Below are positions 7,878 to 22,708 of a stretch of DNA of 64,000 bases, piece after piece; position 1 is the first letter of the stretch; each line of letters opens with the position of its first letter. Source of the DNA: an uncultured Bacteroidota bacterium (GTDB lineage: Bacteria > Bacteroidota > Rhodothermia > Balneolales > HLUCCA01); the NCBI GenBank assembly GCA_947085565.1, contig CAMTWZ010000009.1, positions 22,040-86,039 on the forward strand, written 5' to 3'. The notes below the pieces were generated by a model. The model made no database searches. It was given only the letters and a program-made list of their open reading frames with translations, and was not told where the DNA came from. The position numbers and the translations under genes are program-made.

Positions 7878-8810
7878 TTAATCCCTGTTCGCTCCTTGTA
7901 ATAGCCACTCAATCACATCCACCCCATCAGGTTTCCAATCCACGCCCGGGGTTTGCGCCTGCGAGAGCGGCTCCCATCGCTCCCCATCGATGATTTCCGT
8001 TGTGAAATACAGTTGCTGCAAGCCATCGCCGAGTTCTTCGGCATGTTGCAGCATCATATTTCTGTCCGCTTGTTTCCATACCACGGCGTCATCGTCGTCC
8101 CAAAGCGGATCGGTGTCCGACACCAGCAATTTGCCGACTTGCAAGAAATCATGTCCGATGCTCTTCAGGTAGGCGGACCGGTACACATTCCTTGGAAACA
8201 ACTCCCTGTCTGCAAAACCGGTGGATGCGGACTTCAACGCCTCTTTCGCATCGCCGAATGAGTACGGCGAATAGACATAGCGCACGGAACGGCATCCTTG
8301 TCCGTCGTAACGGGCGATGCCTTCGGCCAAGTCCGACATCGTCTTCGAATCCAGTGAATCGACCCAAGCCATCGAGGTATGCGCCGTGCGGATGAGATAG
8401 CGCGTGTGTTCGTGTACGGCGCCAAGGTCTTTCAAGCGCTCCATCACGACGGGCACACTGTCGGATGACCCCGAAAAAAGCACGGCATCTGCGCGGAGAT
8501 CTCGGAAATCGTCGAGGGAGGTGGACATGAGTGGCGTATGCATGGGCGCATCACTGATGCGCCCATGCATGCGCCCCTCGATCCATTCCCTCAAATACGG
8601 ATCCTTCTTCGACAACTTTCCCGCGTAGCGGTGCCCCGCCCGAGCCACCGACACCACATCGTGCCAGCCCACAAGGGGGAGATTTCCGGCGTGGAGGCAT
8701 AAGACCGTTTTAGGTGCGAAGTGAGAGGTGATAAGCGGAATGTCCGCTCTGGGTGACTTGCTTCTCACATCGCTCATCGCACGTTTCACGTCTTCAGGAT
8801 GAAACCCCAT
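7878..8810 (-). CDS. LuxC-like acyl-CoA reductase family protein
   Basis: LHAGNLPLVGWHDVVSVARAGHRYAGKLSKKDPYL and DGQGCRS resemble Bacteroidota LuxC-family (PF05893-like) proteins. The preferred ATG at 8810 overlaps the upstream stop (ATGA). The track start at 8930 adds an Arg/Pro-rich extension. Confidence 0.65.
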   Translation of the reverse strand: MGFHPEDVKRAMSDVRSKSPRADIPLITSHFAPKTVLCLHAGNLPLVGWHDVVSVARAGHRYAGKLSKKDPYLREWIEGRMHGRISDAPMHTPLMSTSLDDFRDLRADAVLFSGSSDSVPVVMERLKDLGAVHEHTRYLIRTAHTSMAWVDSLDSKTMSDLAEGIARYDGQGCRSVRYVYSPYSFGDAKEALKSASTGFADRELFPRNVYRSAYLKSIGHDFLQVGKLLVSDTDPLWDDDDAVVWKQADRNMMLQHAEELGDGLQQLYFTTEIIDGERWEPLSQAQTPGVDWKPDGVDVIEWLLQGANRD

Positions 8811-9730
8811 CACTCTTCCTCCATGATGAAATTGCAACCGCGGAGCTGCGTGGGGTTGTAGCGGCCCAGAACGTCGAATGAGCCGTCGGGATGGAGACGG
8901 CCTTTGTCGCCGGTAAGCAGAAAGGGACAAGAATGGAGATTATTCTCATCGATCAGGCCGATGAGCCCCTCATCTCCGACCGGGAGTTCACGCAACGGAT
9001 CTTTCGGATCGCGAATGCTCACATGCAGCCAAGGCGGAGTTCGGAAGCCGCCAAGGCCTGCGGCGTAGGCTTGGCTGAGGAGCTCGGTCATGCCGTATTC
9101 GGAATGGATCTGGCCAAGAGGCAGGGAGAACGCCTCGGCCAGGATCCGATGCATGTCGTGCCGGGAAATCTCGCGGCGGTAGGTTTTCATGCCGCCGGTC
9201 TCCATGATGATCGCGGACTCGGGCAACGCGACGGGATGTTTTTCGGCAAGGTCGAGCAGGCCGAACGCCGCACCGAAGAGCATCAGGGTTTTTCCGGAGG
9301 CGCGGACGTGGTCCAACCAAGCCGGGTCGATGGGTAGGCCAGGGATTAGAAAGCGGCTGAGGGGATGGGAGTTCTCCACGAGGTCACGGAGCATCCACAT
9401 CAGCGAGGAATGCGGATTCTGATCATACCCCGGGGCGTAGGCTGCGAAAATCATCGCATCCACATCATAAAAATAGGCCATACCCTCTCTGAGCGATCTC
9501 CTGTACACCTCCGCATACGCCACATGATGCACAGATCGACGCATCTCCGTGGTGCCGCTGCTTCGGAATTCAAGCTCCGGCGGATGATCACCGGCGGCAT
9601 AGATCTTTGTTTCTCGAAACGCCTCAACCGGAAGCAACGGAATGGAATCAATCATCCCGAATGCCTCATAGAAGCTTCTGTACACAGGATTGTGTTCCAA
9701 TTGATGCTCAAGGAGTTCCGTGAATGCCAT
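8810..9730 (-). CDS. LuxE-like acyl-protein synthetase / acyl-adenylate-forming enzyme
   Basis: NPVYRSFYEAFG, FRSSGTT and ETGGMKTYRREISR match my memory of the LuxE/PaaK-type family. The ATG at 9730 is preferred over the track TTG at 9736. Confidence 0.65.
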   Translation of the reverse strand: MAFTELLEHQLEHNPVYRSFYEAFGMIDSIPLLPVEAFRETKIYAAGDHPPELEFRSSGTTEMRRSVHHVAYAEVYRRSLREGMAYFYDVDAMIFAAYAPGYDQNPHSSLMWMLRDLVENSHPLSRFLIPGLPIDPAWLDHVRASGKTLMLFGAAFGLLDLAEKHPVALPESAIIMETGGMKTYRREISRHDMHRILAEAFSLPLGQIHSEYGMTELLSQAYAAGLGGFRTPPWLHVSIRDPKDPLRELPVGDEGLIGLIDENNLHSCPFLLTGDKGRLHPDGSFDVLGRYNPTQLRGCNFIMEEE

Positions 9731-9771
9731 TTCCAAAGGTACGACGCAGGGTGTATCTTTGTCGCTATTCC

Positions 9772-13376: not shown

Positions 13377-14008
13377 GCGAACCTCTCATGAACACCCTTT
13401 CCGAGCCGTGCGACGCGGTATGGCGCGACCGCGGTTCCAAATTCCTCGCCTATGCGAGGCGGGTGGGTCAGGAGACGGAAATCGCTGCGTTCGCCAAAGA
13501 GATTCGATTGCGGTGGCCCGATGCCACGCATCATTGCCTTGGCGCGCGATGGAATCCCGACAGCATCATGGAAATAGGTCAGGACGATGGAGAGCCATCG
13601 GGTACCGCAGGCTTACCCATCCTGAACCAACTGCGTTCCCGAAAACTGGTGAACGTGGCCTGCATCGTGGTCAGATATTTCGGTGGCACGAAACTCGGGA
13701 AGCCAGGCCTAATCCAAGCCTATGGCACCGCGGCCGCCGCATGCCTGGATGAGGCTTCGCTGCTGCCGATCGAAAAGAAGAATCTGTTCAGGATTACCAC
13801 CTCCTTCACCGAAATCAAATGGATCGAGTATCAGGTGAGGAAATCCGGTGCAAAAATCCTATCCACATCGTTCACAGACATCATCCGGTATGAATTGGGT
13901 GTTCCCGACGGCTCCACCGCCGAATTCCTGTCACAAATGCAGATCCACGGCATGCAGCGCGTGAAAATCGAACCCCTCGGCACCACCTGGGATCATAAAA
14001 GCGCTTAA
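13373..14008 (+). CDS. yigZ: YigZ/IMPACT family protein
   Basis: RGSKFLAY, ATHHCLGARW and DDGEPSGTAGLPIL are the UPF0029/IMPACT signature. ATGA overlap with potD. Confidence 0.85.
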   Translation: MSEPLMNTLSEPCDAVWRDRGSKFLAYARRVGQETEIAAFAKEIRLRWPDATHHCLGARWNPDSIMEIGQDDGEPSGTAGLPILNQLRSRKLVNVACIVVRYFGGTKLGKPGLIQAYGTAAAACLDEASLLPIEKKNLFRITTSFTEIKWIEYQVRKSGAKILSTSFTDIIRYELGVPDGSTAEFLSQMQIHGMQRVKIEPLGTTWDHKSA

Positions 14009-14580
14009 CTGGACGATTTTTTCTTGTAACAGGAATGGAGTTTGGCCAATAAGCGGCTTTTTCTGACCCGCACCAAAACCGGACTGATCTTGAACAGCTT
14101 GCTCACAGTCAGATACGACGCTTCGGGTTCATCCATATAGAATTGGATGAATGCGCGATTGGGTTCATCCAGAAGTTCCATGCATTTGCGGAGGATATCC
14201 TCCCTCTCCTGATCCACCAGTCTCTTGTATTGCTCGGCGGGATCCGTCATGTATTGCTCTTCCAGGACCATTCCCCCCTCCCGCATCTCTTTCTTCACCG
14301 TCTTGAAGAATTCATTGCGCGCGGAAATCATCAGATAGCCAATCACGTTCACAGACGTATCGTAATGGCCTGACTTCACCCTGTCGATCATCGAAAAAAG
14401 CGCCTGCTGGGCGCATTCTTCAGCGAGATAGGCGTTGGAACGTACGGTGATGCTCAGATACTCCCTGATCTGAGGTAAGATGATCCGCGTAAACGCATCC
14501 ATCACAGGATGATCATCCTGCACAATGGCTTGGAGAATCTCTTCCGACGAAAATTGAGGGGCACTTGGTTTCGTTGACAC
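14005..14580 (-). CDS. RNA polymerase sigma factor, ECF-like (sigma-70 family)
   Basis: 191 aa. The N-terminus SSEEILQAIVQDDHPVMDAFTRII follows the usual ECF pattern. Region-2-like YLMISARNEFFKTVKK and region-4 HTH-like SYLTVSKLFKISPVLVRVRKSRLLAKL. GTG start. The stop overlaps the yigZ stop (convergent). Confidence 0.6.
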   Translation of the reverse strand: MSTKPSAPQFSSEEILQAIVQDDHPVMDAFTRIILPQIREYLSITVRSNAYLAEECAQQALFSMIDRVKSGHYDTSVNVIGYLMISARNEFFKTVKKEMREGGMVLEEQYMTDPAEQYKRLVDQEREDILRKCMELLDEPNRAFIQFYMDEPEASYLTVSKLFKISPVLVRVRKSRLLAKLHSCYKKKSSS

Positions 14581-14714
14581 GGGTCAAGTTACAAAATGCG
14601 AAGTGAAGCGCCACGCCATTTCAAAAGGATTTTTTTTGAAAATATTTTTTTAATTAGAGCTTCTTAATTATACTAAGTCATTAAAAATCAATGACTAAAA
14701 ATTTTTATTAGAGT

Positions 14715-14745
14715 GCTGTAACATTTGGCACCTCTCGGAATCATA
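14715..14745 (+). promoter_or_regulatory. promoter-like motif GCTGTAACA-N10-CTC-N-G-N-ATCATA upstream of the lipoprotein/CHAT unit
   Basis: GCTGTAACATTTGGCACCTCTCGGAATCATA. 21 of 31 positions are identical to the minus-strand motif at 19730-19760 upstream of the receiver gene. Confidence 0.4.
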
Positions 14746-14868
14746 TATATGAATAGATAAATGATCATAATCGGATAGAGTGGACATTCACTTTAAACTT
14801 AGTGAGTTTATCTTAATGGACTTATGCCTTATATCAACAAAACCATCATACCCAAGATACATAATACC

Positions 14869-15102
14869 ATGAATACGAAATCCACCCTCTTCGCTGTAGC
14901 CGCTGCCGCTATCCTCTTGACTGGCTGCGCCAACTCCACTGACGCCCTCCGCAATGTTGGCGGTCACAGGGAAGGCATCATCGTCAACAAACCCCCAACC
15001 CGCGCGCCAAGCACCAATGCGGATGCCACCGACCGCGATACAGACGCGATCTTCAACGTCGGCGGGCATAAAGAAGGTATTATCGTCAACAAGCCGGAAT
15101 AA
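14869..15102 (+). CDS. small lipoprotein made of two 19-aa repeats (NVGGHxEGIIVNKP core)
   Basis: Signal plus lipobox MNTKSTLFAVAAAAILLTGC. Repeats DALRNVGGHREGIIVNKPP (14941-14997) and DAIFNVGGHKEGIIVNKPE (15043-15099) differ mostly at synonymous sites. The track start at 14824 adds 15 aa before the signal peptide. Confidence 0.65.
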   Translation: MNTKSTLFAVAAAAILLTGCANSTDALRNVGGHREGIIVNKPPTRAPSTNADATDRDTDAIFNVGGHKEGIIVNKPE

Positions 15103-15156
15103 TCTTCGAGATCGCCGTGCTGTGGGTATATTAGCGACCGAACGCTACCCACAGAC

Positions 15157-18100
15157 ATGCTTCGAAACGTATTCATAGTGATGTTGATTTTCGTCTCTGA
15201 GGTTGCTTTTGGGCAACCTCAGAGATTCATTCAGCAGCAACAAGCCGATCAGCTCCTCCAGAGGATTGTTCAGCGCGAGTATGTGGCTATGCATGTTTGG
15301 GGTTTGTCTCAACTCACAGCCCAAGACACAGAGTTGCACAAGTATGTGCGAACCAGGGCGGGCACGTTCCAACCCAGGACATCCGCTGTTGATTGTTATC
15401 TGAACGCCATCACAGCCGTCGGTCATTCCGCCGTGATGAAAGCCGCATGGGACTGCGAGCGGCTACCCGATCTGGGCGTCCTGTATCTGTACAGTTTGGA
15501 ACCGACCGAGAGGGCTGCCGCCTACCGATCGAACCTGACCCATTTCCGCTATTCCTCTTCCGATCCCGTGATAGATGCATATCTGAAAAGGGCGTTGAAT
15601 CCGGATGCGGATGTGGCTGGCATTGCAGGAAAACGCGCTTTCCGAGCCGCAGACGTGCTATTGATTCCGCCAGGTTACGGGTATTCGGACGGGAATGCGG
15701 TTCATTACCTGTCGCTTCTCGACCATTGGTCTATTGGGCTTCAACCCACACGCAGAAGTCTCTCATTCGCAGACACCTATCAAGTCTTTCTGCTGATCGA
15801 CTCCTACCATGTTCGAAGCCAATACGAAAGGGTCTATCCGTTCATGGAGACGATTTCGGGGTCAAGTATTTTCCCGGATATCGATATCAAGCTCCGCACG
15901 TACCGGCGGCTGGCGTTCGCCGCATACTATCTGGCGTATTACCAATCGGCATTGGATTTCTACAGACGCGATTTGCTGCCTACTGTCAGAAGGATGTCCG
16001 ATGGAAATCCCAATTATGTCGAAGCGCGACTTCGAGTTGAAACCGATTTTGGGAGCATTCTTTTCCTTCTTGGGGATATTCAGAGTGCTAGAGACATCTA
16101 TGCGAAGATTTTTCATCGCCGAGCGGAGCTGACCGATCTTCGCGCCCGATCCACGCTTCTCAACAACCTCGCCGTCGCTTATTTGAACACTGGGATGGTG
16201 GGCGATTATCTATCGCTGCAGTTTCAAGCCTTGTCGGATGCGCGACTTTCCAGAGACAATCAAAACCAACTGCAGATTCTGAATAATCTGTACGTGTTCC
16301 ATTGGCGTCGGGGCGATTGGGAAAACGGAATCCGATACTTGAACAAGGCTTACGAAGTCGCACTTGAGTCGAATGCGAAAGAGGAATTAGGCAACATCCT
16401 GTCGTTGTATGGCACCTATCATCGTGAATTTCTAAAAAACCCTGCGAAAGCCCTCGAGTTCAACGACCGAGCCATCAGCCTCTTGCAGAGCACGGGGTCG
16501 AAAATCACGCTTCGGCTTGTTCAATTCGAAAAAGCACTCACTTTGGAGAGCTTGGGAAGATATGATGACGCGATTGCCTTGTACACTGAGATCGAGTCGG
16601 ATGCGGCACTGCGGAATGATCTAGTTTCAGCTACGGTGACACGTATTCAACGCATCCATCTGTTGCAGACATTGGGACGTCACGGGCAAACCAGCGAGTT
16701 GGTCACCTCTCTGAAAAACAAGGACCTACGCAACACCCTTGATTTCGAGAAATTCATTGAGGCCGTGAATGTGGTTGCGACTGACGACATCCACCAAAAC
16801 CAACCACGCAAAGCATTGGCGCTTCTCGAACCTGTGGTGACGGAGATTTTCACACGTATCGAGAACAGTGCGGATTCCCAGACCGGTTTCATCCGCTTCA
16901 AACCGGAATTCGCTGTTTCCATCCGGATCCTTGTGGATTTGCACCTTTCGTTGAATCAGCTCGAAAAGGCCGCTGAATTGCTTGATGCGGTAAAGACCGT
17001 GAATCAATCTTCCCTGAACAACAGCAATCTCATAAGATCATCCCTGTTCAGCGAATCTGAGCGTCTGGAAGATTTCAAATTGATGCAAGACATCGAGCAG
17101 ACACGCGGAAAGTTGATGGATGCCAGCGAAACCCAGAAACTGGAATTGAACAACCGACTGCTGCAGTTGCAGCGCAAGCGACTTCCAGGTATCAACTTCA
17201 AAGACCGCTCCATCCATGAAGCGCAGCAGTTCTTGGGCAAAGGACATGCGATTGTTTCCATCACTGTTGTAGACCACAAGGTCTATCGCACAACGGTGAC
17301 CAGAACATCGATCCGAGTCAACGCCTTGGCTGGAAGCAAAGGTATGTTGGAAGAATGGTCGCAGATCGGGACCAAGCTGCAATCCGGAACCACTCCGCTC
17401 AATGATCTGCACAAATTGTATCAGCGGTTGCTGGGTGATGTCATGAAATCGAAACCCAGTCATCTGATTTTCATTCCAGACGGTCCGCTTCATCGAATTC
17501 CGGTGGAAATCCTACCCACCACTGCGCCCGCTTCCGAGACATCCTTCGGCAGCGTTCGATTTTTGATTGAGGACCTGCCTGTCACCTATTCCACATCCAT
17601 CAGAGAGCACCATTCCACTGACCGTACGCGCCCGGATTACACCTCCGATTTTCTCGGGGTGGGAATCTCCCGGTTGCGTTCTTTCCCGTTGATGAATCCC
17701 CTTCCGTTCGCCGAGCAGGAAGTGAACCGGATCAGCAACACACTGTCCAAATTGGGCAATCAACGCATCCTAACGGGTGCGGAGGCAACGGAAGCGGCCA
17801 TCCGACAAAATGCGGCGGGAAGCAGGATTTTGCACATCGCTTCCCACAGCGAAGTGAACATGTCCGACCCGCTGTTTTCAGTGATTTATCTGGAAGCAAA
17901 TGAAACCGACGATGGAGCCTTGTATGCCTATGAACTCTTCGGCATGAATCTGGACATGGAGCTCATCATGTTGAGCAGTTGCGAATCGGGCAGCGGCAGC
18001 TTCATCCAAGGAAGCGGCATGGTGGGTTTGGGCCGTGCGTTGCGATCTGCGGGAGCGCGAAGCCTGGTGATGAACATGTGGTCGATCCAGGACCAGACCG

Positions 18101-18351
18101 CCGCAGACATTTCCACTTGGTTTTATGAACATCTGAATCAGGGGTTCGCCAAAGACGAGGCCTTGCGCGCTGCGAAAATCCGATATCTGACCACTCGGAG
18201 CAGCAATCCCCATGTTTGGGGGTCATTCATTCTGATCGGTGAAAACGACCCTCTTATAAATAAAATCAGCATCAGGGATCTCTTCGTCGGGGGTATCCTG
18301 ATGCTGATTTTGGGTGGGGCCCTGTTGCTTGTTTTTTATCGACGGAGCTGA
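15157..18351 (+). CDS. exported TPR-repeat CHAT-domain (caspase-fold) protein with a C-terminal membrane anchor
   Basis: 1064 aa. Signal-like MLRNVFIVMLIFVSEVAFGQ. TPR-like helical repeats at roughly aa 300-560. The CHAT region starts about LIFIPDGPLHRIPVEIL (nt 17461) and has His in ILHIASHSEV (17845-17847) and Cys in IMLSSCESGSG (17980-17982). Terminal helix LFVGGILMLILGGALLLVFYRRS. Confidence 0.8.
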   Translation: MLRNVFIVMLIFVSEVAFGQPQRFIQQQQADQLLQRIVQREYVAMHVWGLSQLTAQDTELHKYVRTRAGTFQPRTSAVDCYLNAITAVGHSAVMKAAWDCERLPDLGVLYLYSLEPTERAAAYRSNLTHFRYSSSDPVIDAYLKRALNPDADVAGIAGKRAFRAADVLLIPPGYGYSDGNAVHYLSLLDHWSIGLQPTRRSLSFADTYQVFLLIDSYHVRSQYERVYPFMETISGSSIFPDIDIKLRTYRRLAFAAYYLAYYQSALDFYRRDLLPTVRRMSDGNPNYVEARLRVETDFGSILFLLGDIQSARDIYAKIFHRRAELTDLRARSTLLNNLAVAYLNTGMVGDYLSLQFQALSDARLSRDNQNQLQILNNLYVFHWRRGDWENGIRYLNKAYEVALESNAKEELGNILSLYGTYHREFLKNPAKALEFNDRAISLLQSTGSKITLRLVQFEKALTLESLGRYDDAIALYTEIESDAALRNDLVSATVTRIQRIHLLQTLGRHGQTSELVTSLKNKDLRNTLDFEKFIEAVNVVATDDIHQNQPRKALALLEPVVTEIFTRIENSADSQTGFIRFKPEFAVSIRILVDLHLSLNQLEKAAELLDAVKTVNQSSLNNSNLIRSSLFSESERLEDFKLMQDIEQTRGKLMDASETQKLELNNRLLQLQRKRLPGINFKDRSIHEAQQFLGKGHAIVSITVVDHKVYRTTVTRTSIRVNALAGSKGMLEEWSQIGTKLQSGTTPLNDLHKLYQRLLGDVMKSKPSHLIFIPDGPLHRIPVEILPTTAPASETSFGSVRFLIEDLPVTYSTSIREHHSTDRTRPDYTSDFLGVGISRLRSFPLMNPLPFAEQEVNRISNTLSKLGNQRILTGAEATEAAIRQNAAGSRILHIASHSEVNMSDPLFSVIYLEANETDDGALYAYELFGMNLDMELIMLSSCESGSGSFIQGSGMVGLGRALRSAGARSLVMNMWSIQDQTAADISTWFYEHLNQGFAKDEALRAAKIRYLTTRSSNPHVWGSFILIGENDPLINKISIRDLFVGGILMLILGGALLLVFYRRS

Positions 18352-19064
18352 TCTTTGGCGTTGATCGCAGCTCGCTTGAATTCGCCATCCATCTGTATGA
18401 CCTGATCCAGATACAGATCGGCTTCTTTGAGTCTGTTTTGGTGAATCAGGGCATTGGCCGCATACCAAGTCGATTTTTCACGGATGGATGGATCAGTGCC
18501 TGGCGTATCGATGATGACGGCGAACAACGCGATCGCATCAGCGTAGTTTTTTGAATTGTAATTCAACGCCGCCAGACTCAGCTGGGTTCGGGAACGTTGA
18601 TCGAGGGTCAATTCCGATTCCAACAACGAATTGAGCCTGGACTCCGCCGAGGCCGTGTTTCCATCCAAGGCAAGTACGGTGACATCCCTCAAGGAGGCTT
18701 CGAACTCGTCTGAACTGACTTCCGCCGACCGCATCAAGCTGTATTCGACAGTGGCCAACGGGCGGAATTCAGCGGCGGAATCCGATCCGGTGAGGAAATA
18801 CATCGATGTTCCGACCCCGATGATCACCGCCGCAGCCGCTGCAGTCGCAGCCATTCTGATGCGTTCTCGGTTCATCAACGGAATCGGGGTCACATTCCGC
18901 CCCACGGAGAGTTTCCTCAAGGTGGCTGCGGTTTTCATGTAATCGAGATAGTCGTGCTGGATGACATCCACCCATAGGTGGTCTATCTGTTTCTGGGTCA
19001 GTACACCCTTCACATATAGATCAATCCTATCTTCCAGGTCAAGGAGTTTGGATCGGGTTTTCAC
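18336..19064 (-). CDS. single-pass membrane protein, putative anti-sigma factor with a TPR-like outer domain
   Basis: 242 aa, GTG start. The N-terminal roughly 75 aa are cytoplasmic and follow the usual anti-sigma pattern (IDLYVKGVLTQKQIDHLWVDVIQHDYLDYMK). One TM segment (MAATAAAAAVIIGVGTSMYFL). The C-terminal helical repeats look like TPR (YADAIALFAVII, WYAANALIHQNRLKEADLYLDQVI). No family signature recognised. Confidence 0.45.
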   Translation of the reverse strand: MKTRSKLLDLEDRIDLYVKGVLTQKQIDHLWVDVIQHDYLDYMKTAATLRKLSVGRNVTPIPLMNRERIRMAATAAAAAVIIGVGTSMYFLTGSDSAAEFRPLATVEYSLMRSAEVSSDEFEASLRDVTVLALDGNTASAESRLNSLLESELTLDQRSRTQLSLAALNYNSKNYADAIALFAVIIDTPGTDPSIREKSTWYAANALIHQNRLKEADLYLDQVIQMDGEFKRAAINAKDQLRR

Positions 19065-19125: not shown

Positions 19126-19710
19126 TCAGAACGTGGGTTGTTCGCCACGTTTCTGCATCACAAGACGGATGGTGTTCAGAAGGTCTTCTTTTTGAAACGG
19201 TTTGGGCAAAAACGCATCCATACCGGCTTCCAGGCAGTGCTCGCGGATATTGGTGGTGAGATTCGCAGTGACTGCGATGATGGGAACATCCTTGTATTGC
19301 TCGATCCGACGCAATTGGCGGGTGGTTTCAATGCCATCCATCCCTTCGCCCAGGTTCACATCCATGATGATGACATCATAGTGTTCGTCTTTGGCAAGCT
19401 GGAGAGCTTCGGCGCCGTTTTCCGCGGCGTCAACTTGAAATCGCTTCTTACGTAGGAAATACTTCACGATCGAACGGACTTCCGCGTTGTCTTCCACATG
19501 GAGAGTTCGCAGTGATACCGATTCGATGGTGTCTGTTGCCGTTTCAGACACGGCTTCAATCCTTTCCGACTGTTCATCCCAAACATACCTCCTGACCGAA
19601 TCCTTCGCACTGCGCTCAGTTAAGACAATGGATGGTACGAACATAAGTGTATCGGCAGAGGTCGTCTGCCTTAGGTTTGATTGGACGAAGTTGTGAAGTA
19701 CTCGAAACAT
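19126..19710 (-). CDS. stand-alone response-regulator receiver protein with a roughly 70-aa N-terminal extension
   Basis: REC motifs: LHVEDN, phospho-acceptor context DVIIMDVNLGEGMDG, IIAVTAN, KPF. No output domain. AAGGAGG lies 7 nt upstream of the ATG. Confidence 0.8.
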   Translation of the reverse strand: MFRVLHNFVQSNLRQTTSADTLMFVPSIVLTERSAKDSVRRYVWDEQSERIEAVSETATDTIESVSLRTLHVEDNAEVRSIVKYFLRKKRFQVDAAENGAEALQLAKDEHYDVIIMDVNLGEGMDGIETTRQLRRIEQYKDVPIIAVTANLTTNIREHCLEAGMDAFLPKPFQKEDLLNTIRLVMQKRGEQPTF

Positions 19711-19729: not shown

Positions 19730-19760
19730 TATGATCCTGAGGAACCCGATTTGTTACAGC
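19730..19760 (-). promoter_or_regulatory. promoter-like motif, minus-strand copy, upstream of the receiver/anti-sigma-like unit
   Basis: The minus strand reads GCTGTAACAAATCGGGTTCCTCAGGATCATA, then GAGATAAGGAGGAACATCC ATG. It matches the motif at 14715-14745. Confidence 0.4.
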
Positions 19761-19912: not shown

Positions 19913-22615
19913 TCAATTTCCGGAGTAAGCCTCTCCTTTTCTGATCCATTCGGCGGCCGGAGCCCCTTTCAGATAGTGGTCGAAGTACTCTTTCATCCGG
20001 ATGGTGTAGTCCATTTTGTTCGCATAACGCTGAGGATGGTGAGGTTCGCCATGATATTGAAGGAAGATGACGTCCTTATTGAGCCGTCGCATCGCCAGGT
20101 ACAATTCGATGCCTTGATACCAGGGCACCGCGTCGTCTTCATCGCCGAACATGATCAGAGTCGGCGTTTTGATGCGGTCGGCGAAGAACACGGGTGAATT
20201 CTCGATGTACAGATCTCTGGCTTCCCACATCGTCTTCCCGATCCGGCTTTGTTGCTGTTCGTATTGGAACTGACGGGCCAGGCCTGTGCCCCAACGGATG
20301 CCGTTATAGGCGCTGGTCATGTTAGATACTGGAGCCCCGACGATTGCCGCCGCGAACAGATTCGTCTGCGTGATGATGTGAGCCGCTTGGTATCCGCTCC
20401 ATGAATGGCCGTGGATTCCGATCCGAGCCGGATCAGCGATCCCCAGATCGATCAGCTTCTGCACTCCGGGAACGATGTATTTGGTGGACGAATAACCCGG
20501 CTGACCCAAATCATACCTAACGTCCGGCAAGAATATGGCATATCCGTTGCTGGCGTAATATGGAAATGAGGGGCGATGATTCACCGCCAAAGCATTGTAT
20601 TCGTGCAATCGCTGGGAGAACAGCTCATAGAAATACACGATTACGGGTAGTTTGGTACCCGGTTTCCATCCACCCGGCGTGATCAGCACCCCTTGAACCG
20701 GAATTCCATCCATGCTCGACCATTCCACCAGTTGGGATTGTCCCCAAGCAAGCTCTTTCATGATCGGATTGACATCAGTGCGTTTCACTTTGGTCTTGAA
20801 CTTGGAATCGGAGCTCCATAAATCAGGAAACTCGTTGTAGGATTCGCGTGTGTACAGAACCACGTCCGCATTTTTGGCTTTGGCTATGAAGTTGAGTTTC
20901 TTGGATTCATCCAGAAGCAAGGTGAGGCTTGGACGTTCAAATCGAAGCTCATAAAACCCGGTGGTTTTTTTCAAGTCGTGATAACCGGTGAGCAACAAGG
21001 GTTGGCTCACGGAAATGGTGGGCTTGTCGGTGGTGATTCTCACACGGTATTGGAGTTTGTCTCTTCGGCCGGTCCGGGTGAGATTCGCCGATGTTCCCGA
21101 ACTCGGATCGAACGCCCAGATATCGAATTTGTCGTAAATGAGGACCCGGGCCTCATTGTCCAACCATCCTGCGATTCCATACCCTGAAGCGCTGCCAGGT
21201 GTGTCGTGGTCTTCGTTGGCGAAGGAAGTCGATATGGATTGCGTCAGATTGCGGCTCACACCGGTCGCGGAATTCGTGGCATGCCAATGTCCGTCGCGGA
21301 AATAGACCACCCAGACACCGGTTGGCGACAATTGCGCGGAACCGCTGTGACGTGTGAGTATTCTCCGGCGCGACCCGCTTTGCAGATCCACGACGGAAAT
21401 ATCGGATTGGTTACCGAACCACGAAATCTCCCGCTGATAATCGCTGTTGGATGTTCCAAGCGCGAAACGCGTGTTTTTAGGCACAGATACCGATGCCAAG
21501 CTCGAATCGGCCAAGGCTACCGTCCGATTTCCGGCCCTATGCCAAACGCTCATAAACGTCCGGTTTCTGCGTTGGGTAGCCGTTTTGATCTCATGAGGTT
21601 TGATGAGCGGATCTTCGCCATGCCACACATCCAGACCCCGATCGGCGCGGATGAATTCGGTGTCTGTGAAATTCGTCGTGCTCCATTCATCGCGCTTGGG
21701 TTTCATCACGGGTTTTTCCGCTTCCGGCTTCACTCCGAAAAAGAGAAGTTCGCCACGGTCCGACCAGCTCAAGGTGTTTCTGAACGGGACATATCGGCCC
21801 GAAAAAGCAGGTTCGATTTCACTCAGGGTGTTGGAAAAAACAAATAACTGGGATTCTTCCACTGCCTGATCCGCATCTTCCTGTGCGGAAAGAAACGCCA
21901 GACTGGAGGTCGATTCATTCCAAGTAAGCCTGTCGTATCGAGCGAACGGTGCGGCATGGAGGGTGTCGACGGTGCCATCCGCGATCTTGTAACGGATCAG
22001 TGCGTTGCCTTTTCCGGAACTGTCGGCGAGCGCCAGGAAGACGACGCTGCCGAGCGAATCGGCCTGAAATGCGGACACGAATGGAATCGTGCGGATGGAT
22101 TCCGAACCCAAACTGCGAATTTCGAGCGTGGAGCCGATAGTTTTGCGCCATCCGCTTCCCGCTTTGCCTGCATTGTACCAGACCAGGATATATTTTGAAT
22201 TCCCTGTGAACTGAAACGATTTCACATCCGCCAAGGTGGTCATCACTCCGGTGGATGTCGGGAAATACACCATTCCCGCTTTGGGGCGGTCGGCCGGTTT
22301 GGATGCGTTTTCCACGGCGATCACATCGGGTCGGACGGTGACTCCCGCAAAAGCCGCATCTGTTGAGAACACCGGTTTTTCACCGTTCGGGATGGTGTAT
22401 GAACGCCGGCCTGCGATTTCCTTGACCACAGCCTCTCCATTGCCGCGATCGGGCCAGGTATCGTATCCCATCCAAACCCCGTTGTCGGAAATCGACGCAT
22501 TGCGAAGGGTTCGCATCGACATCAGGTCGTTCAGGGTCATCGGTCGGTTTTGAGCGAAAGAGTGATCGGAGAACGCGAAAAGCGTGAGGACGAAGACGAA
22601 CAGGAATTTGCGCAT
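19913..22615 (-). CDS. S9 family serine peptidase (prolyl oligopeptidase/dipeptidyl aminopeptidase type) with an N-terminal beta-propeller
   Basis: C-terminal alpha/beta hydrolase with nucleophile elbow GIHGHSWSGYQ, then FGDEDDAV and GEPHH. Signal peptide MRKFLFVFVLTLFAFSDHSFAQ from the ATG at 22615. The track start at 22684 is a TTG. Confidence 0.85.
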   Translation of the reverse strand: MRKFLFVFVLTLFAFSDHSFAQNRPMTLNDLMSMRTLRNASISDNGVWMGYDTWPDRGNGEAVVKEIAGRRSYTIPNGEKPVFSTDAAFAGVTVRPDVIAVENASKPADRPKAGMVYFPTSTGVMTTLADVKSFQFTGNSKYILVWYNAGKAGSGWRKTIGSTLEIRSLGSESIRTIPFVSAFQADSLGSVVFLALADSSGKGNALIRYKIADGTVDTLHAAPFARYDRLTWNESTSSLAFLSAQEDADQAVEESQLFVFSNTLSEIEPAFSGRYVPFRNTLSWSDRGELLFFGVKPEAEKPVMKPKRDEWSTTNFTDTEFIRADRGLDVWHGEDPLIKPHEIKTATQRRNRTFMSVWHRAGNRTVALADSSLASVSVPKNTRFALGTSNSDYQREISWFGNQSDISVVDLQSGSRRRILTRHSGSAQLSPTGVWVVYFRDGHWHATNSATGVSRNLTQSISTSFANEDHDTPGSASGYGIAGWLDNEARVLIYDKFDIWAFDPSSGTSANLTRTGRRDKLQYRVRITTDKPTISVSQPLLLTGYHDLKKTTGFYELRFERPSLTLLLDESKKLNFIAKAKNADVVLYTRESYNEFPDLWSSDSKFKTKVKRTDVNPIMKELAWGQSQLVEWSSMDGIPVQGVLITPGGWKPGTKLPVIVYFYELFSQRLHEYNALAVNHRPSFPYYASNGYAIFLPDVRYDLGQPGYSSTKYIVPGVQKLIDLGIADPARIGIHGHSWSGYQAAHIITQTNLFAAAIVGAPVSNMTSAYNGIRWGTGLARQFQYEQQQSRIGKTMWEARDLYIENSPVFFADRIKTPTLIMFGDEDDAVPWYQGIELYLAMRRLNKDVIFLQYHGEPHHPQRYANKMDYTIRMKEYFDHYLKGAPAAEWIRKGEAYSGN

Positions 22616-22708
22616 GGAGACCGTGGGTTGGTGAACGTTGAAAATCGAAAACCTACGCTTGGTATGCAATTTTCGTAACTTCAATTAACAAGAACAGCCG
22701 GGACCGAT

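Follow-up and report, generated by a model that had tools for sequence, protein, structure and literature searches.

Introduction

Proteases of the CHAT (separase-like) family have recently been tied to the control of sigma and anti-sigma factors in two systems, Craspase–Csx30–CASP-sigma and DdvA–DdvS. In type III-E CRISPR the TPR-CHAT protein of Craspase, Csx29, cleaves Csx30 and so frees CASP-sigma, which resembles the extracytoplasmic function (ECF) sigma factors (PMC10028731). In Myxococcus xanthus the ECF sigma factor DdvS is paired with DdvA, a transmembrane anti-sigma factor with a periplasmic TPR-CHAT (PDB 8rot, 8rw5); DdvA forms a two-fold symmetric dimer with its active sites at the interface, and the active site is described as incomplete (PMC11506125). 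The ligand that triggers DdvA is unknown, and its authors propose a periplasmic protein that binds TPR-CHAT, with CHAT as the site-1 protease (PMC11506125). Here we analyse a locus in which a TPR-CHAT gene directly follows a gene for a 77-aa prolipoprotein with two copies of a 19-aa repeat. It lies in a stretch of 64,000 nucleotides, called the window below, from an uncultured bacterium of the Balneolales (GenBank assembly GCA_947085565.1, contig CAMTWZ010000009.1, positions 22,040 to 86,039, forward strand).

Like DdvA/DdvS, the module in the window combines an ECF sigma factor with a TPR-CHAT of the separase/craspase type that appears to be periplasmic and anchored in the inner membrane. From the genes present we infer that the module is a split variant of the CHAT-linked sigma/anti-sigma signalling represented by DdvA/DdvS. 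The lipoprotein belongs to an undescribed family, with neither a family model nor a matching paper in our literature searches; these returned nothing on a CHAT-associated lipoprotein, and CHAT is not mentioned in the main text of the ECF reclassification paper.

Results

A small lipoprotein with two copies of one motif

The open reading frame (ORF) at 14869–15102 (+) translates as MNTKSTLFAVAAAAILLTG|CANST-DALRNVGGHREGIIVNKPP-TRAPSTNADATDRDT-DAIFNVGGHKEGIIVNKPE*, that is, a signal part, MNTKSTLFAVAAAAILLTG, followed by the mature chain CANSTDALRNVGGHREGIIVNKPPTRAPSTNADATDRDTDAIFNVGGHKEGIIVNKPE, with about 57 aa past Cys20. An earlier note on this DNA had described a tiny lipoprotein built from two 19-aa repeats, at 14941–14997 and 15043–15099, and we reproduced both the coordinates and the sequence (Table 1). 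The N-terminus, MNTK-STLFAVAAAAILL-TG-C, fits a bacterial lipoprotein signal, with a charged n-region, a hydrophobic core and a lipobox of the form [LVI][ASTVI][GAS]-C. Gly19 and Cys20 are invariant in all 19 family members, in which the lipobox takes the forms L/F/V/A/I-T/L/V-G-C. The gene product is therefore probably a small lipoprotein, with lipidation predicted at Cys20.

In-frame stops lie just 5′ of the lipoprotein start in seven of 11 orthologous loci, and the homologues found are all 64–80 aa long, those of 77 aa beginning at the same Met (starts MNTKS or MKTKS). The conserved start is therefore placed at 14869, and the public call P0001 (92 aa, start 14824) is over-extended by 45 nt.

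The two repeats of the window protein are identical at 15 of 19 residues and at 41 of 57 nucleotides. The eight synonymous codon differences listed in the earlier note are all present, and with gcc/gcg they make nine; four further codons differ non-synonymously (L/I, R/F, R/K, P/E). Independent repeat finding recovered the pair (D1, 56 nt, 75% identity), which stands far above chance, and the reading frame is kept in all homologues.

Comparison of colinear lipoprotein orthologues from four genomes gave ratios of non-synonymous to synonymous substitution (dN/dS) of 0.13–0.28 at dS 0.4–1.3. The corresponding ratio of pooled proportions (pN/pS) was 0.29 in the signal peptide, 0.14 in repeat 1, 0.64 in the linker and 0.13 in repeat 2. 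These values indicate that the gene is under purifying selection and, because pN/pS is 0.13–0.14 in the repeats versus 0.64 in the linker, that the constraint sits on the repeats.

Table 1. Features of the lipoprotein–CHAT locus, in positions of the window.
Feature	Position	Strand	Remarks
Prolipoprotein gene	14869..15102	+	77 aa; stop codon within the span, which ends at 15102
Lipoprotein signal peptide	14869..14928	+	MNTK n-region, hydrophobic core, lipobox L-T-G-C; Cys20 at 14926-14928
Repeat 1 (DALRNVGGHREGIIVNKPP)	14941..14997	+	13-residue core motif at 14959-14997; pooled pN/pS 0.14
Linker	14998..15042	+	P/T/S/D-rich, variable; pooled pN/pS 0.64; length differs among homologues
Repeat 2 (DAIFNVGGHKEGIIVNKPE) and protein end	15043..15099	+	core motif at 15061-15099; pooled pN/pS 0.13
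Intercistronic stem-loop	15118..15157	+	around conserved GGTATATT; ends at the CHAT start codon
TPR-CHAT protease	15157..18351	+	1064 aa; signal peptide (…VAFG|QP), TPR region, CHAT with His897/Cys942, C-terminal transmembrane helix
ECF-type sigma factor	14005..14580	-	191 aa; divergently transcribed; TIGR02937 and profile matches; conserved in the module
Probable anti-sigma factor	18336..19064	-	242 aa; N-terminal helical region of ~60 aa, single transmembrane segment, periplasmic TPR domain
Stand-alone receiver protein	19126..19710	-	Pfam Response_reg, E = 1.3e-29; N-terminal extension of ~65 aa; upstream of the anti-sigma gene, same strand
Promoter-like motif P1 (TGTAACATTT-N-TCTCGGAATCAT)	14717..14744	+	~125 nt upstream of the lipoprotein ATG
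Promoter-like motif P2 (TGTAACAAAT-N-CCTCAGGATCAT)	19731..19758	-	upstream of the receiver/anti-sigma operon

Across the family the constant part of the motif is [KR]-E-[DG]-I-[IV]-V-x-x-P-[DE], as a rule with [KR] ahead of the Pro. A C-terminal copy is present in every member, and the [KR] ahead of E-[DG] is invariant throughout. In 18 of the 19 aligned members the protein terminates with the P-[DE] of the motif; P0142 has four residues beyond it. The core proposed earlier, NVGGHxEGIIVNKP, thus holds in its second part only: the NVGGH segment varies, including its His, and homologues carry GGV, YDV, SGV or WGA instead. The idea that GGH forms an amino-terminal Cu(II)- and Ni(II)-binding (ATCUN) or other metal site was dropped, the His being replaced in orthologues.

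The construction from two repeats likewise applies to the clade of the window and is specific to it. Members beside the most distant CHAT orthologues show one clear copy (P0135–P0140 in loci L017, L018 and L024), which lies at the extreme C-terminus and reads [KR]-E-D-I-I-V-x-x-P-[DE].

The two copies appear to evolve in concert

The 15 two-repeat proteins carry the 13-residue core in seven variants (for example …IIVNKPE, …IVVAKPE, …IIVPRPE, …IIVDRPD and …IIVIRPE), and within a protein the two 13-mers are identical in 12 of the 15. Positions 10–11 (NK, AK, PR, DR or IR) agree between the copies in every one of the 15. When second copies were permuted among proteins, not once in 100,000 trials did the identity rise to the observed level; shared ancestry inflates this test. 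At least eight separate state changes have occurred in parallel in both copies.

At the level of DNA the copies are far from identical. In the six genomes with identical 13-mers they differ at 3–7 of the 13 codons, to a total of 27 synonymous and no non-synonymous changes. For the two repeats of L009, pS is 0.75, about the level seen between orthologues, and pN is 0.08, whereas orthologous comparisons give pN 0.13–0.25 at similar pS. The window's own protein is among the three exceptions to identity, with 11 of 13 positions matching (R/K, P/E).

This pattern indicates that the two copies evolve in concert, held the same by selection on the peptide, and because in six genomes they differ by synonymous changes only, recent homogenisation of the DNA does not account for it. 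The simplest reading, put forward as a candidate, is that both copies must fit one binding site on a single partner.

The earlier note had argued for selection on the peptide and against a recent DNA duplication or a spurious ORF, and the comparative data bear this out. A spurious ORF, or a functionless tandem duplication of recent date, might be suspected from the small size of the frame, its lack of family annotation and its rarity in databases. Nevertheless, frame, start codon and lipobox are kept across orthologues whose CHAT proteins are only 31–34% identical, dN/dS is well below 1, and the differences between copies are exclusively synonymous in six genomes; we regard this explanation as refuted.

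An AlphaFold2 (AF2) model of the lipoprotein, built on a shallow alignment of 19 sequences, contains a helix at residues 3–18 only. Beyond this signal helix the predicted local distance difference test score (pLDDT) is ~50 and no secondary structure is present. On this model the mature lipoprotein is probably a disordered tether that bears linear motifs, and its P/T/S/D-rich linker and short, conserved motifs of hydrophobic and acidic residues fit that picture.

The lipoprotein gene accompanies an orthologous TPR-CHAT gene

The gene downstream of the lipoprotein gene encodes a TPR-CHAT protein whose CHAT domain matches Pfam PF12770 with E = 1.7e-52. Its AF2 model (pLDDT 84) comprises a TPR solenoid to residue ~690, the CHAT domain at 697–1030 and a transmembrane helix at 1039–1063. 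All 11 CHAT orthologues whose termini were read have both the signal peptide, which looks cleavable, and the C-terminal transmembrane helix; because of these two features the CHAT protein is predicted to be periplasmic, and thus to share that compartment with the lipoprotein. In a Foldseek search the top PDB matches of the model were Csx29, DdvA and separase, including separase–securin complexes.

The lipoprotein stop and the CHAT ATG (15157) are separated by 54 nt, as the earlier note had stated. A family member stands directly upstream of an orthologous TPR-CHAT gene in 13 of 13 distinct readable contexts, with spacers of 46–125 nt, and the adjacency holds down to 31–34% CHAT identity. No terminator was detected by a scan of the 54-nt spacer. 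Together with a conserved promoter-like motif upstream of the lipoprotein gene, described below, these observations support the link between the two genes that had been proposed. The note had also named findings that would speak against a functional peptide, among them a lack of homologous repeat peptides near CHAT genes elsewhere and a frame that is not conserved; wherever their context could be read the homologues do lie beside CHAT genes, with one or two copies of the motif, and all keep the frame.

The 13 contexts include that of P0142, a weak match in the motif alone (REDIIVPRP, E = 0.048), which also lies directly upstream of a TPR-CHAT gene, of 1091 aa, with another gene downstream of CHAT. 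In contrast, the surroundings of P0025, a CHAT paralogue of 25% identity, contain neither a lipoprotein member nor a sigma factor, which keeps us from extending the partnership past the orthologous clade. As judged from gene order, the tightest and most general pairing of the lipoprotein is with CHAT, inside one orthologous clade.

His897 and Cys942 are invariant in 36 homologues, and with this dyad intact the CHAT protease is likely to be active. The lipopeptide could then be a true substrate, cut at [KR]|E-D-I-I-V… so as to release one or two identical peptides or to remove a tether, and the cleavage could be either the signalling step or a decoy reaction that titrates the protease. The dyad itself, the invariant [KR] before E-[DG], and the identical motif copies split by a relaxed linker, a layout that resembles multi-core precursor or substrate designs, would all suit such a role, and clan-CD relatives (separase, metacaspases, gingipains) cut after basic residues. 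However, the module shows no obvious receptor on which a released peptide could act, and the one-copy members indicate that multiplicity is not essential; we consider a substrate role unlikely.

Running towards each other, the CHAT gene (+) and the probable anti-sigma gene (−) share their last 16 nt (18336–18351). A similar convergent overlap is found in most orthologous loci (L001, L009, L016, L017, L018, L019, L020, L021 and L024).

A five-gene module with sigma and probable anti-sigma factors

The lipoprotein and TPR-CHAT genes belong to a module of five, with a divergent ECF sigma factor, a probable anti-sigma factor and a receiver protein, which recurs across the orthologous loci. The 191-aa sigma ORF scored 43.3 bits against TIGR02937 (cut-off 42.9), over model positions 5–163 of 165, and in a profile search it matched the ECF sigma factors of PDB entries 5uxx and 2q1z.

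Residues 112–240 of the 242-aa protein gave TPR matches in a PDB profile search, corresponding to about three repeats. The protein lacks a CHCC motif; of the 11 loci long enough on the downstream side to show its gene, 10 have it. From its architecture and its place in the module it is probably an anti-sigma factor. The receiver gene is present at every locus long enough to show it. The receiver protein lacks an output domain, and the module includes no gene for a histidine kinase. The first ATG of the receiver gene lies only ~20 nt from the predicted −10 element, so translation may really begin at an internal Met; the orthologues are 168–196 aa long.

The presence of a second TPR protein opens another interpretation, in which the motif binds the anti-sigma TPR domain and not CHAT, the lipoprotein acting as a co-sensor or as a protector against proteolysis, as RseB does for RseA. 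The candidate anti-sigma factor has a compact TPR domain of about three repeats, and such domains bind short, often C-terminal acidic peptides (Hop–EEVD, PEX5–PTS1); an acidic motif end closes the protein in 18 of 19 members, and the two operons appear to be co-regulated. The tightest linkage is nevertheless with CHAT, on the same strand at a spacer of 46–125 nt. Moreover, L023, a short contig, keeps the lipoprotein–CHAT pair with a gene after CHAT that is not the anti-sigma gene, and the motif copy in the interior of the chain lacks a free carboxylate. Binding to the anti-sigma TPR domain thus seems to us quite unlikely.

Genes outside the five-gene core vary: MacB and cupredoxin genes in L017, HiPIP in L018 and L024, and GCHY-1 in L023. 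A 923-aa protein of the S9 prolyl-oligopeptidase family (19913–22684, −) is encoded beside the module in the window, L001, L009 and L017 and is absent from L016, L018 and L019; it apparently falls outside the conserved core. Further away, a gene for a LuxE-like acyl-protein synthetase and an unannotated ORF of ~300–350 aa (7878–9736, −) lie upstream of an ABC importer and are syntenic in L001, L007, L016 and L017.

The repeat structure had also suggested a multi-core precursor of a ribosomally synthesised and post-translationally modified peptide. This was rejected: the neighbours are sigma factor, CHAT, TPR and receiver proteins, the ABC importer and Impact_N, with no modifying enzymes, and the N-terminus is a lipoprotein signal peptide.

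Promoter-like motifs and an intercistronic hairpin

P1, in the spacer between the sigma and lipoprotein genes, is kept in eight of nine aligned orthologous loci, whereas the rest of that spacer is divergent. The relaxed pattern TGTAAC-N16-21-[AT]T[CT]AT occurs exactly twice in the 64-kb window, at P1 and at P2; the latter reads CTGTAACAAAT…CCTCAGGATCAT on the minus strand (19758–19731). The two sites share the motif CTGTAACA[TA][TA]T … TC.C.G.ATCAT. With the window, six loci have exactly these two sites, one for each operon, the others being L001, L009, L016, L019 and L021. Promoters of the sigmaE type have the form GGAACTT-N16-TCAAA, to which P1 and P2 are similar in geometry. Judging by their conservation and placement, P1 and P2 are probably promoters of the adjacent ECF sigma factor, which would then drive both operons. 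A scan for sigma-70 promoters gave nothing above the expectation from shuffled sequence, and an Rfam scan of 14400–15400 gave no match.

A more prosaic explanation is that the lipoprotein is a plain envelope-stress protein of the sigma regulon, with a function of its own (metal or ligand binding, or structural), which stands beside CHAT by inheritance. ECF regulons often include small envelope proteins, and the extensive synteny of the clade makes adjacency alone weak evidence for a partnership. On the other hand, the lipoprotein–CHAT pair stays intact where the flanks outside the core differ (L017, L018, L024, L023), orthologues have GGV, YDV or WGA in place of the putative metal-binding GGH, and identical linear motifs on a disordered chain suggest a protein as partner. 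We therefore hold an independent function to be improbable.

The spacer between the sigma and lipoprotein genes also contains a 7-bp inverted repeat, AGTCATT-N7-AATGACT (14676–14696, +), around a conserved AATAAAATCAA core, which may serve as an operator or belong to the sigma gene's own promoter.

The lipoprotein–CHAT spacer folds into a stem-loop with a free energy of −17.7 kcal/mol in the window (z = −4.7), −23.2 in L016 (z = −5.4) and −20.1 in L019 (z = −3.5). L001 has a weaker hairpin (−15.4, z = −2.4), that of L009 falls short of significance (z = −1.1), and none is detectable in L017 and L018, the two most distant loci folded. The inner stems of the hairpin differ in sequence between clades; because they do not align, RNAalifold returned only a weak consensus of 5 bp for the spacer, and the single-sequence folds are more informative. 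Speculatively, the hairpin may lower translation of CHAT relative to the lipopeptide and so set the ratio of their expression.

Extent of the family

The family comprises about 20 clusters among 5.8 billion proteins. A word-indexed search of these 5.8 billion returned six clusters, and an exhaustive profile search of 1.84 billion representatives added one further real cluster; an HYR-repeat protein with 14 weak stretches, returned by the same profile search, was a spurious match. Full-length CHAT orthologues reach down to 33% BLASTP identity, and each of five more distant CHAT loci (L016, L017, L018, L019 and L021) has a small lipoprotein ORF immediately upstream. The lipoproteins of the distant loci were added to the query alignment, and a third search with it brought the total to about 20 clusters.

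Scanning of Joint Genome Institute (JGI) metagenomes with back-translated motifs found no member, and scanning of metagenomes for GGH[KR]E[DG]I[IV]V as degenerate DNA gave six chance matches in unrelated ORFs. A scan of GTDB genomes found two metagenome-assembled genomes, labelled Balneolales and ‘Chitinophagales’. Every member derives from the same narrow set of uncultured Balneolales-like genomes, and the comparative evidence is correspondingly shallow in phylogenetic terms.

Comparison with Pfam (E ≤ 0.01) and with NCBIfam assigned the lipoprotein to no family, NCBIfam giving only sub-threshold matches at the level of the signal peptide. The label ‘LpoB’, which two members carry at JGI, is unsupported: no LpoB or other Pfam or NCBIfam model matches. 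In L020, whose CHAT gene is of 33% identity, the contig begins only a little upstream of that gene. Its first 24 nucleotides (1–24) encode, in frame upstream of that gene, …VIIGVPP*, which may be the tail of a divergent motif variant cut by the contig end.

Discussion

We tentatively favour, with somewhat less than even confidence, the view that the lipopeptide is a ligand, pseudo-substrate or tether of CHAT and thereby controls proteolysis of the anti-sigma factor. The earlier note had thought of a substrate, bait or ligand for the neighbouring protease, a suggestion that gains in definition now that both proteins are predicted to be periplasmic and the CHAT protein resembles separase, DdvA and Csx29. 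The motif would be a docking element for the periplasmic TPR-CHAT protein, itself anchored in the inner membrane by its C-terminal transmembrane helix, and two identical copies would engage two equivalent sites, such as those on the protomers of a DdvA-like dimer. Binding would hold or position the protease, much as securin does with separase, the lipopeptide serving as a pseudo-substrate inhibitor or as a membrane tether. If an envelope signal displaced or destroyed the lipopeptide, CHAT would be free to make a site-1 cut in the anti-sigma factor, within its periplasmic TPR domain. The cut would release the ECF sigma factor to transcribe both operons, and the sigma-driven operons would in turn re-supply lipopeptide, protease and anti-sigma factor as feedback.

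A more specific form of this scheme is a periplasmic ‘securin–separase’ switch, in which the disordered, lipid-anchored peptide, through its one or two identical docking or pseudo-substrate motifs, clamps a dimeric TPR-CHAT anchored in the inner membrane, and loss of the clamp, for instance when envelope geometry or lipoprotein trafficking is disturbed, leads to site-1 cleavage of the anti-sigma factor and activation of the ECF sigma factor. In this full form we think the scheme rather unlikely.

Several observations weigh against control of CHAT by the lipopeptide. The results constrain no direction of effect, and an inhibitor, an activator, a tether and a substrate would all accord with them. 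One member has no basic residue before the Pro of the motif (…VIVIIPD). Conservation is as strong in the internal copy as in the C-terminal one, which makes recognition purely through a free C-terminal carboxylate unlikely. Part of the concerted pattern could stem from old gene conversion and later synonymous drift. Since all members come from a single narrow clade with extensive synteny, the adjacency of lipoprotein and CHAT genes is only partly independent evidence. Finally, the N-terminal 96 aa of the anti-sigma candidate gave no Pfam match even at E ≤ 10.

The family does not extend beyond a narrow group of uncultured Balneolales-like bacteria, and the functional statements made here are all inferred. 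Within these bounds, the lipopeptide is a concrete candidate ligand or pseudo-substrate for the gating of a periplasmic CHAT protease, small enough to be synthesised and encoded in a small genetic system. Should the clamp exist, it would supply the genetically encoded ligand still missing for CHAT anti-sigma systems of the DdvA type. The apparent concerted evolution of the two copies, in the absence of recent DNA homogenisation, would be a clean example of selection matching two linear motifs to one partner.

Among the PDB matches listed for the CHAT model, DdvA has the highest query-normalised TM-scores (8rot_A and 8rw5, 0.45 and 0.42 over ~1040 columns); a PDB sequence search with the window CHAT gave no DdvA match at the level of sequence. 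DdvA unites a cytoplasmic zinc anti-sigma domain, a transmembrane segment and TPR-CHAT in a single polypeptide, whereas the window distributes these parts over separate genes: the anti-sigma-like N-terminus, the transmembrane segment and a small TPR domain are on the 242-aa protein, and TPR-CHAT stands apart without an N-terminal anti-sigma domain. In contrast to DdvA, the His/Cys dyad of the window protein is intact and invariant. The module also adds dedicated lipoprotein and receiver genes, the word ‘lipoprotein’ being absent from the text on DdvA (PMC11506125), and unlike DdvS/DdvA it has no CBASS (cyclic-oligonucleotide-based antiphage signalling system) or CRISPR regulon nearby.

Csx29 is the top Foldseek match of the window CHAT (8eey_B, E = 3.6e-14). 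Craspase, however, is cytoplasmic and is activated by RNA-guided Cas7-11, with neither signal peptide, transmembrane helix nor lipoprotein, and the window lipoprotein is unrelated to Csx30 or Csx31.

Securin is intrinsically disordered and binds along separase, a protein of helical repeats and a CHAT-like domain, whose active site it occupies as a pseudo-substrate. Separase–securin complexes (PDB 5u1t, 7nj1 and 5mz6) are among the structural matches of the window CHAT, and like securin the lipopeptide is predicted to be disordered (pLDDT ~50). The lipopeptide differs in its predicted lipid anchor, its periplasmic location and its repeated motifs; the two have no sequence relationship. LpoB shares with the window lipoprotein a small size and a long disordered region.

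Envelope peptides or lipoproteins control site-1 cleavage or a sensor, and thereby release an ECF sigma factor or switch on a stress response, in several systems (cited in PMC10028731), among them DegS/RseA/RseB, which responds to C-terminal peptides of outer membrane proteins, RcsF and NlpE. DegS is a serine protease of the HtrA type with a PDZ domain, whereas the protease in the window is a cysteine protease of the CHAT type with TPRs; and where the peptide that activates DegS is a by-product of misfolding, that of the window is the product of a dedicated gene, encoded together with its candidate protease.

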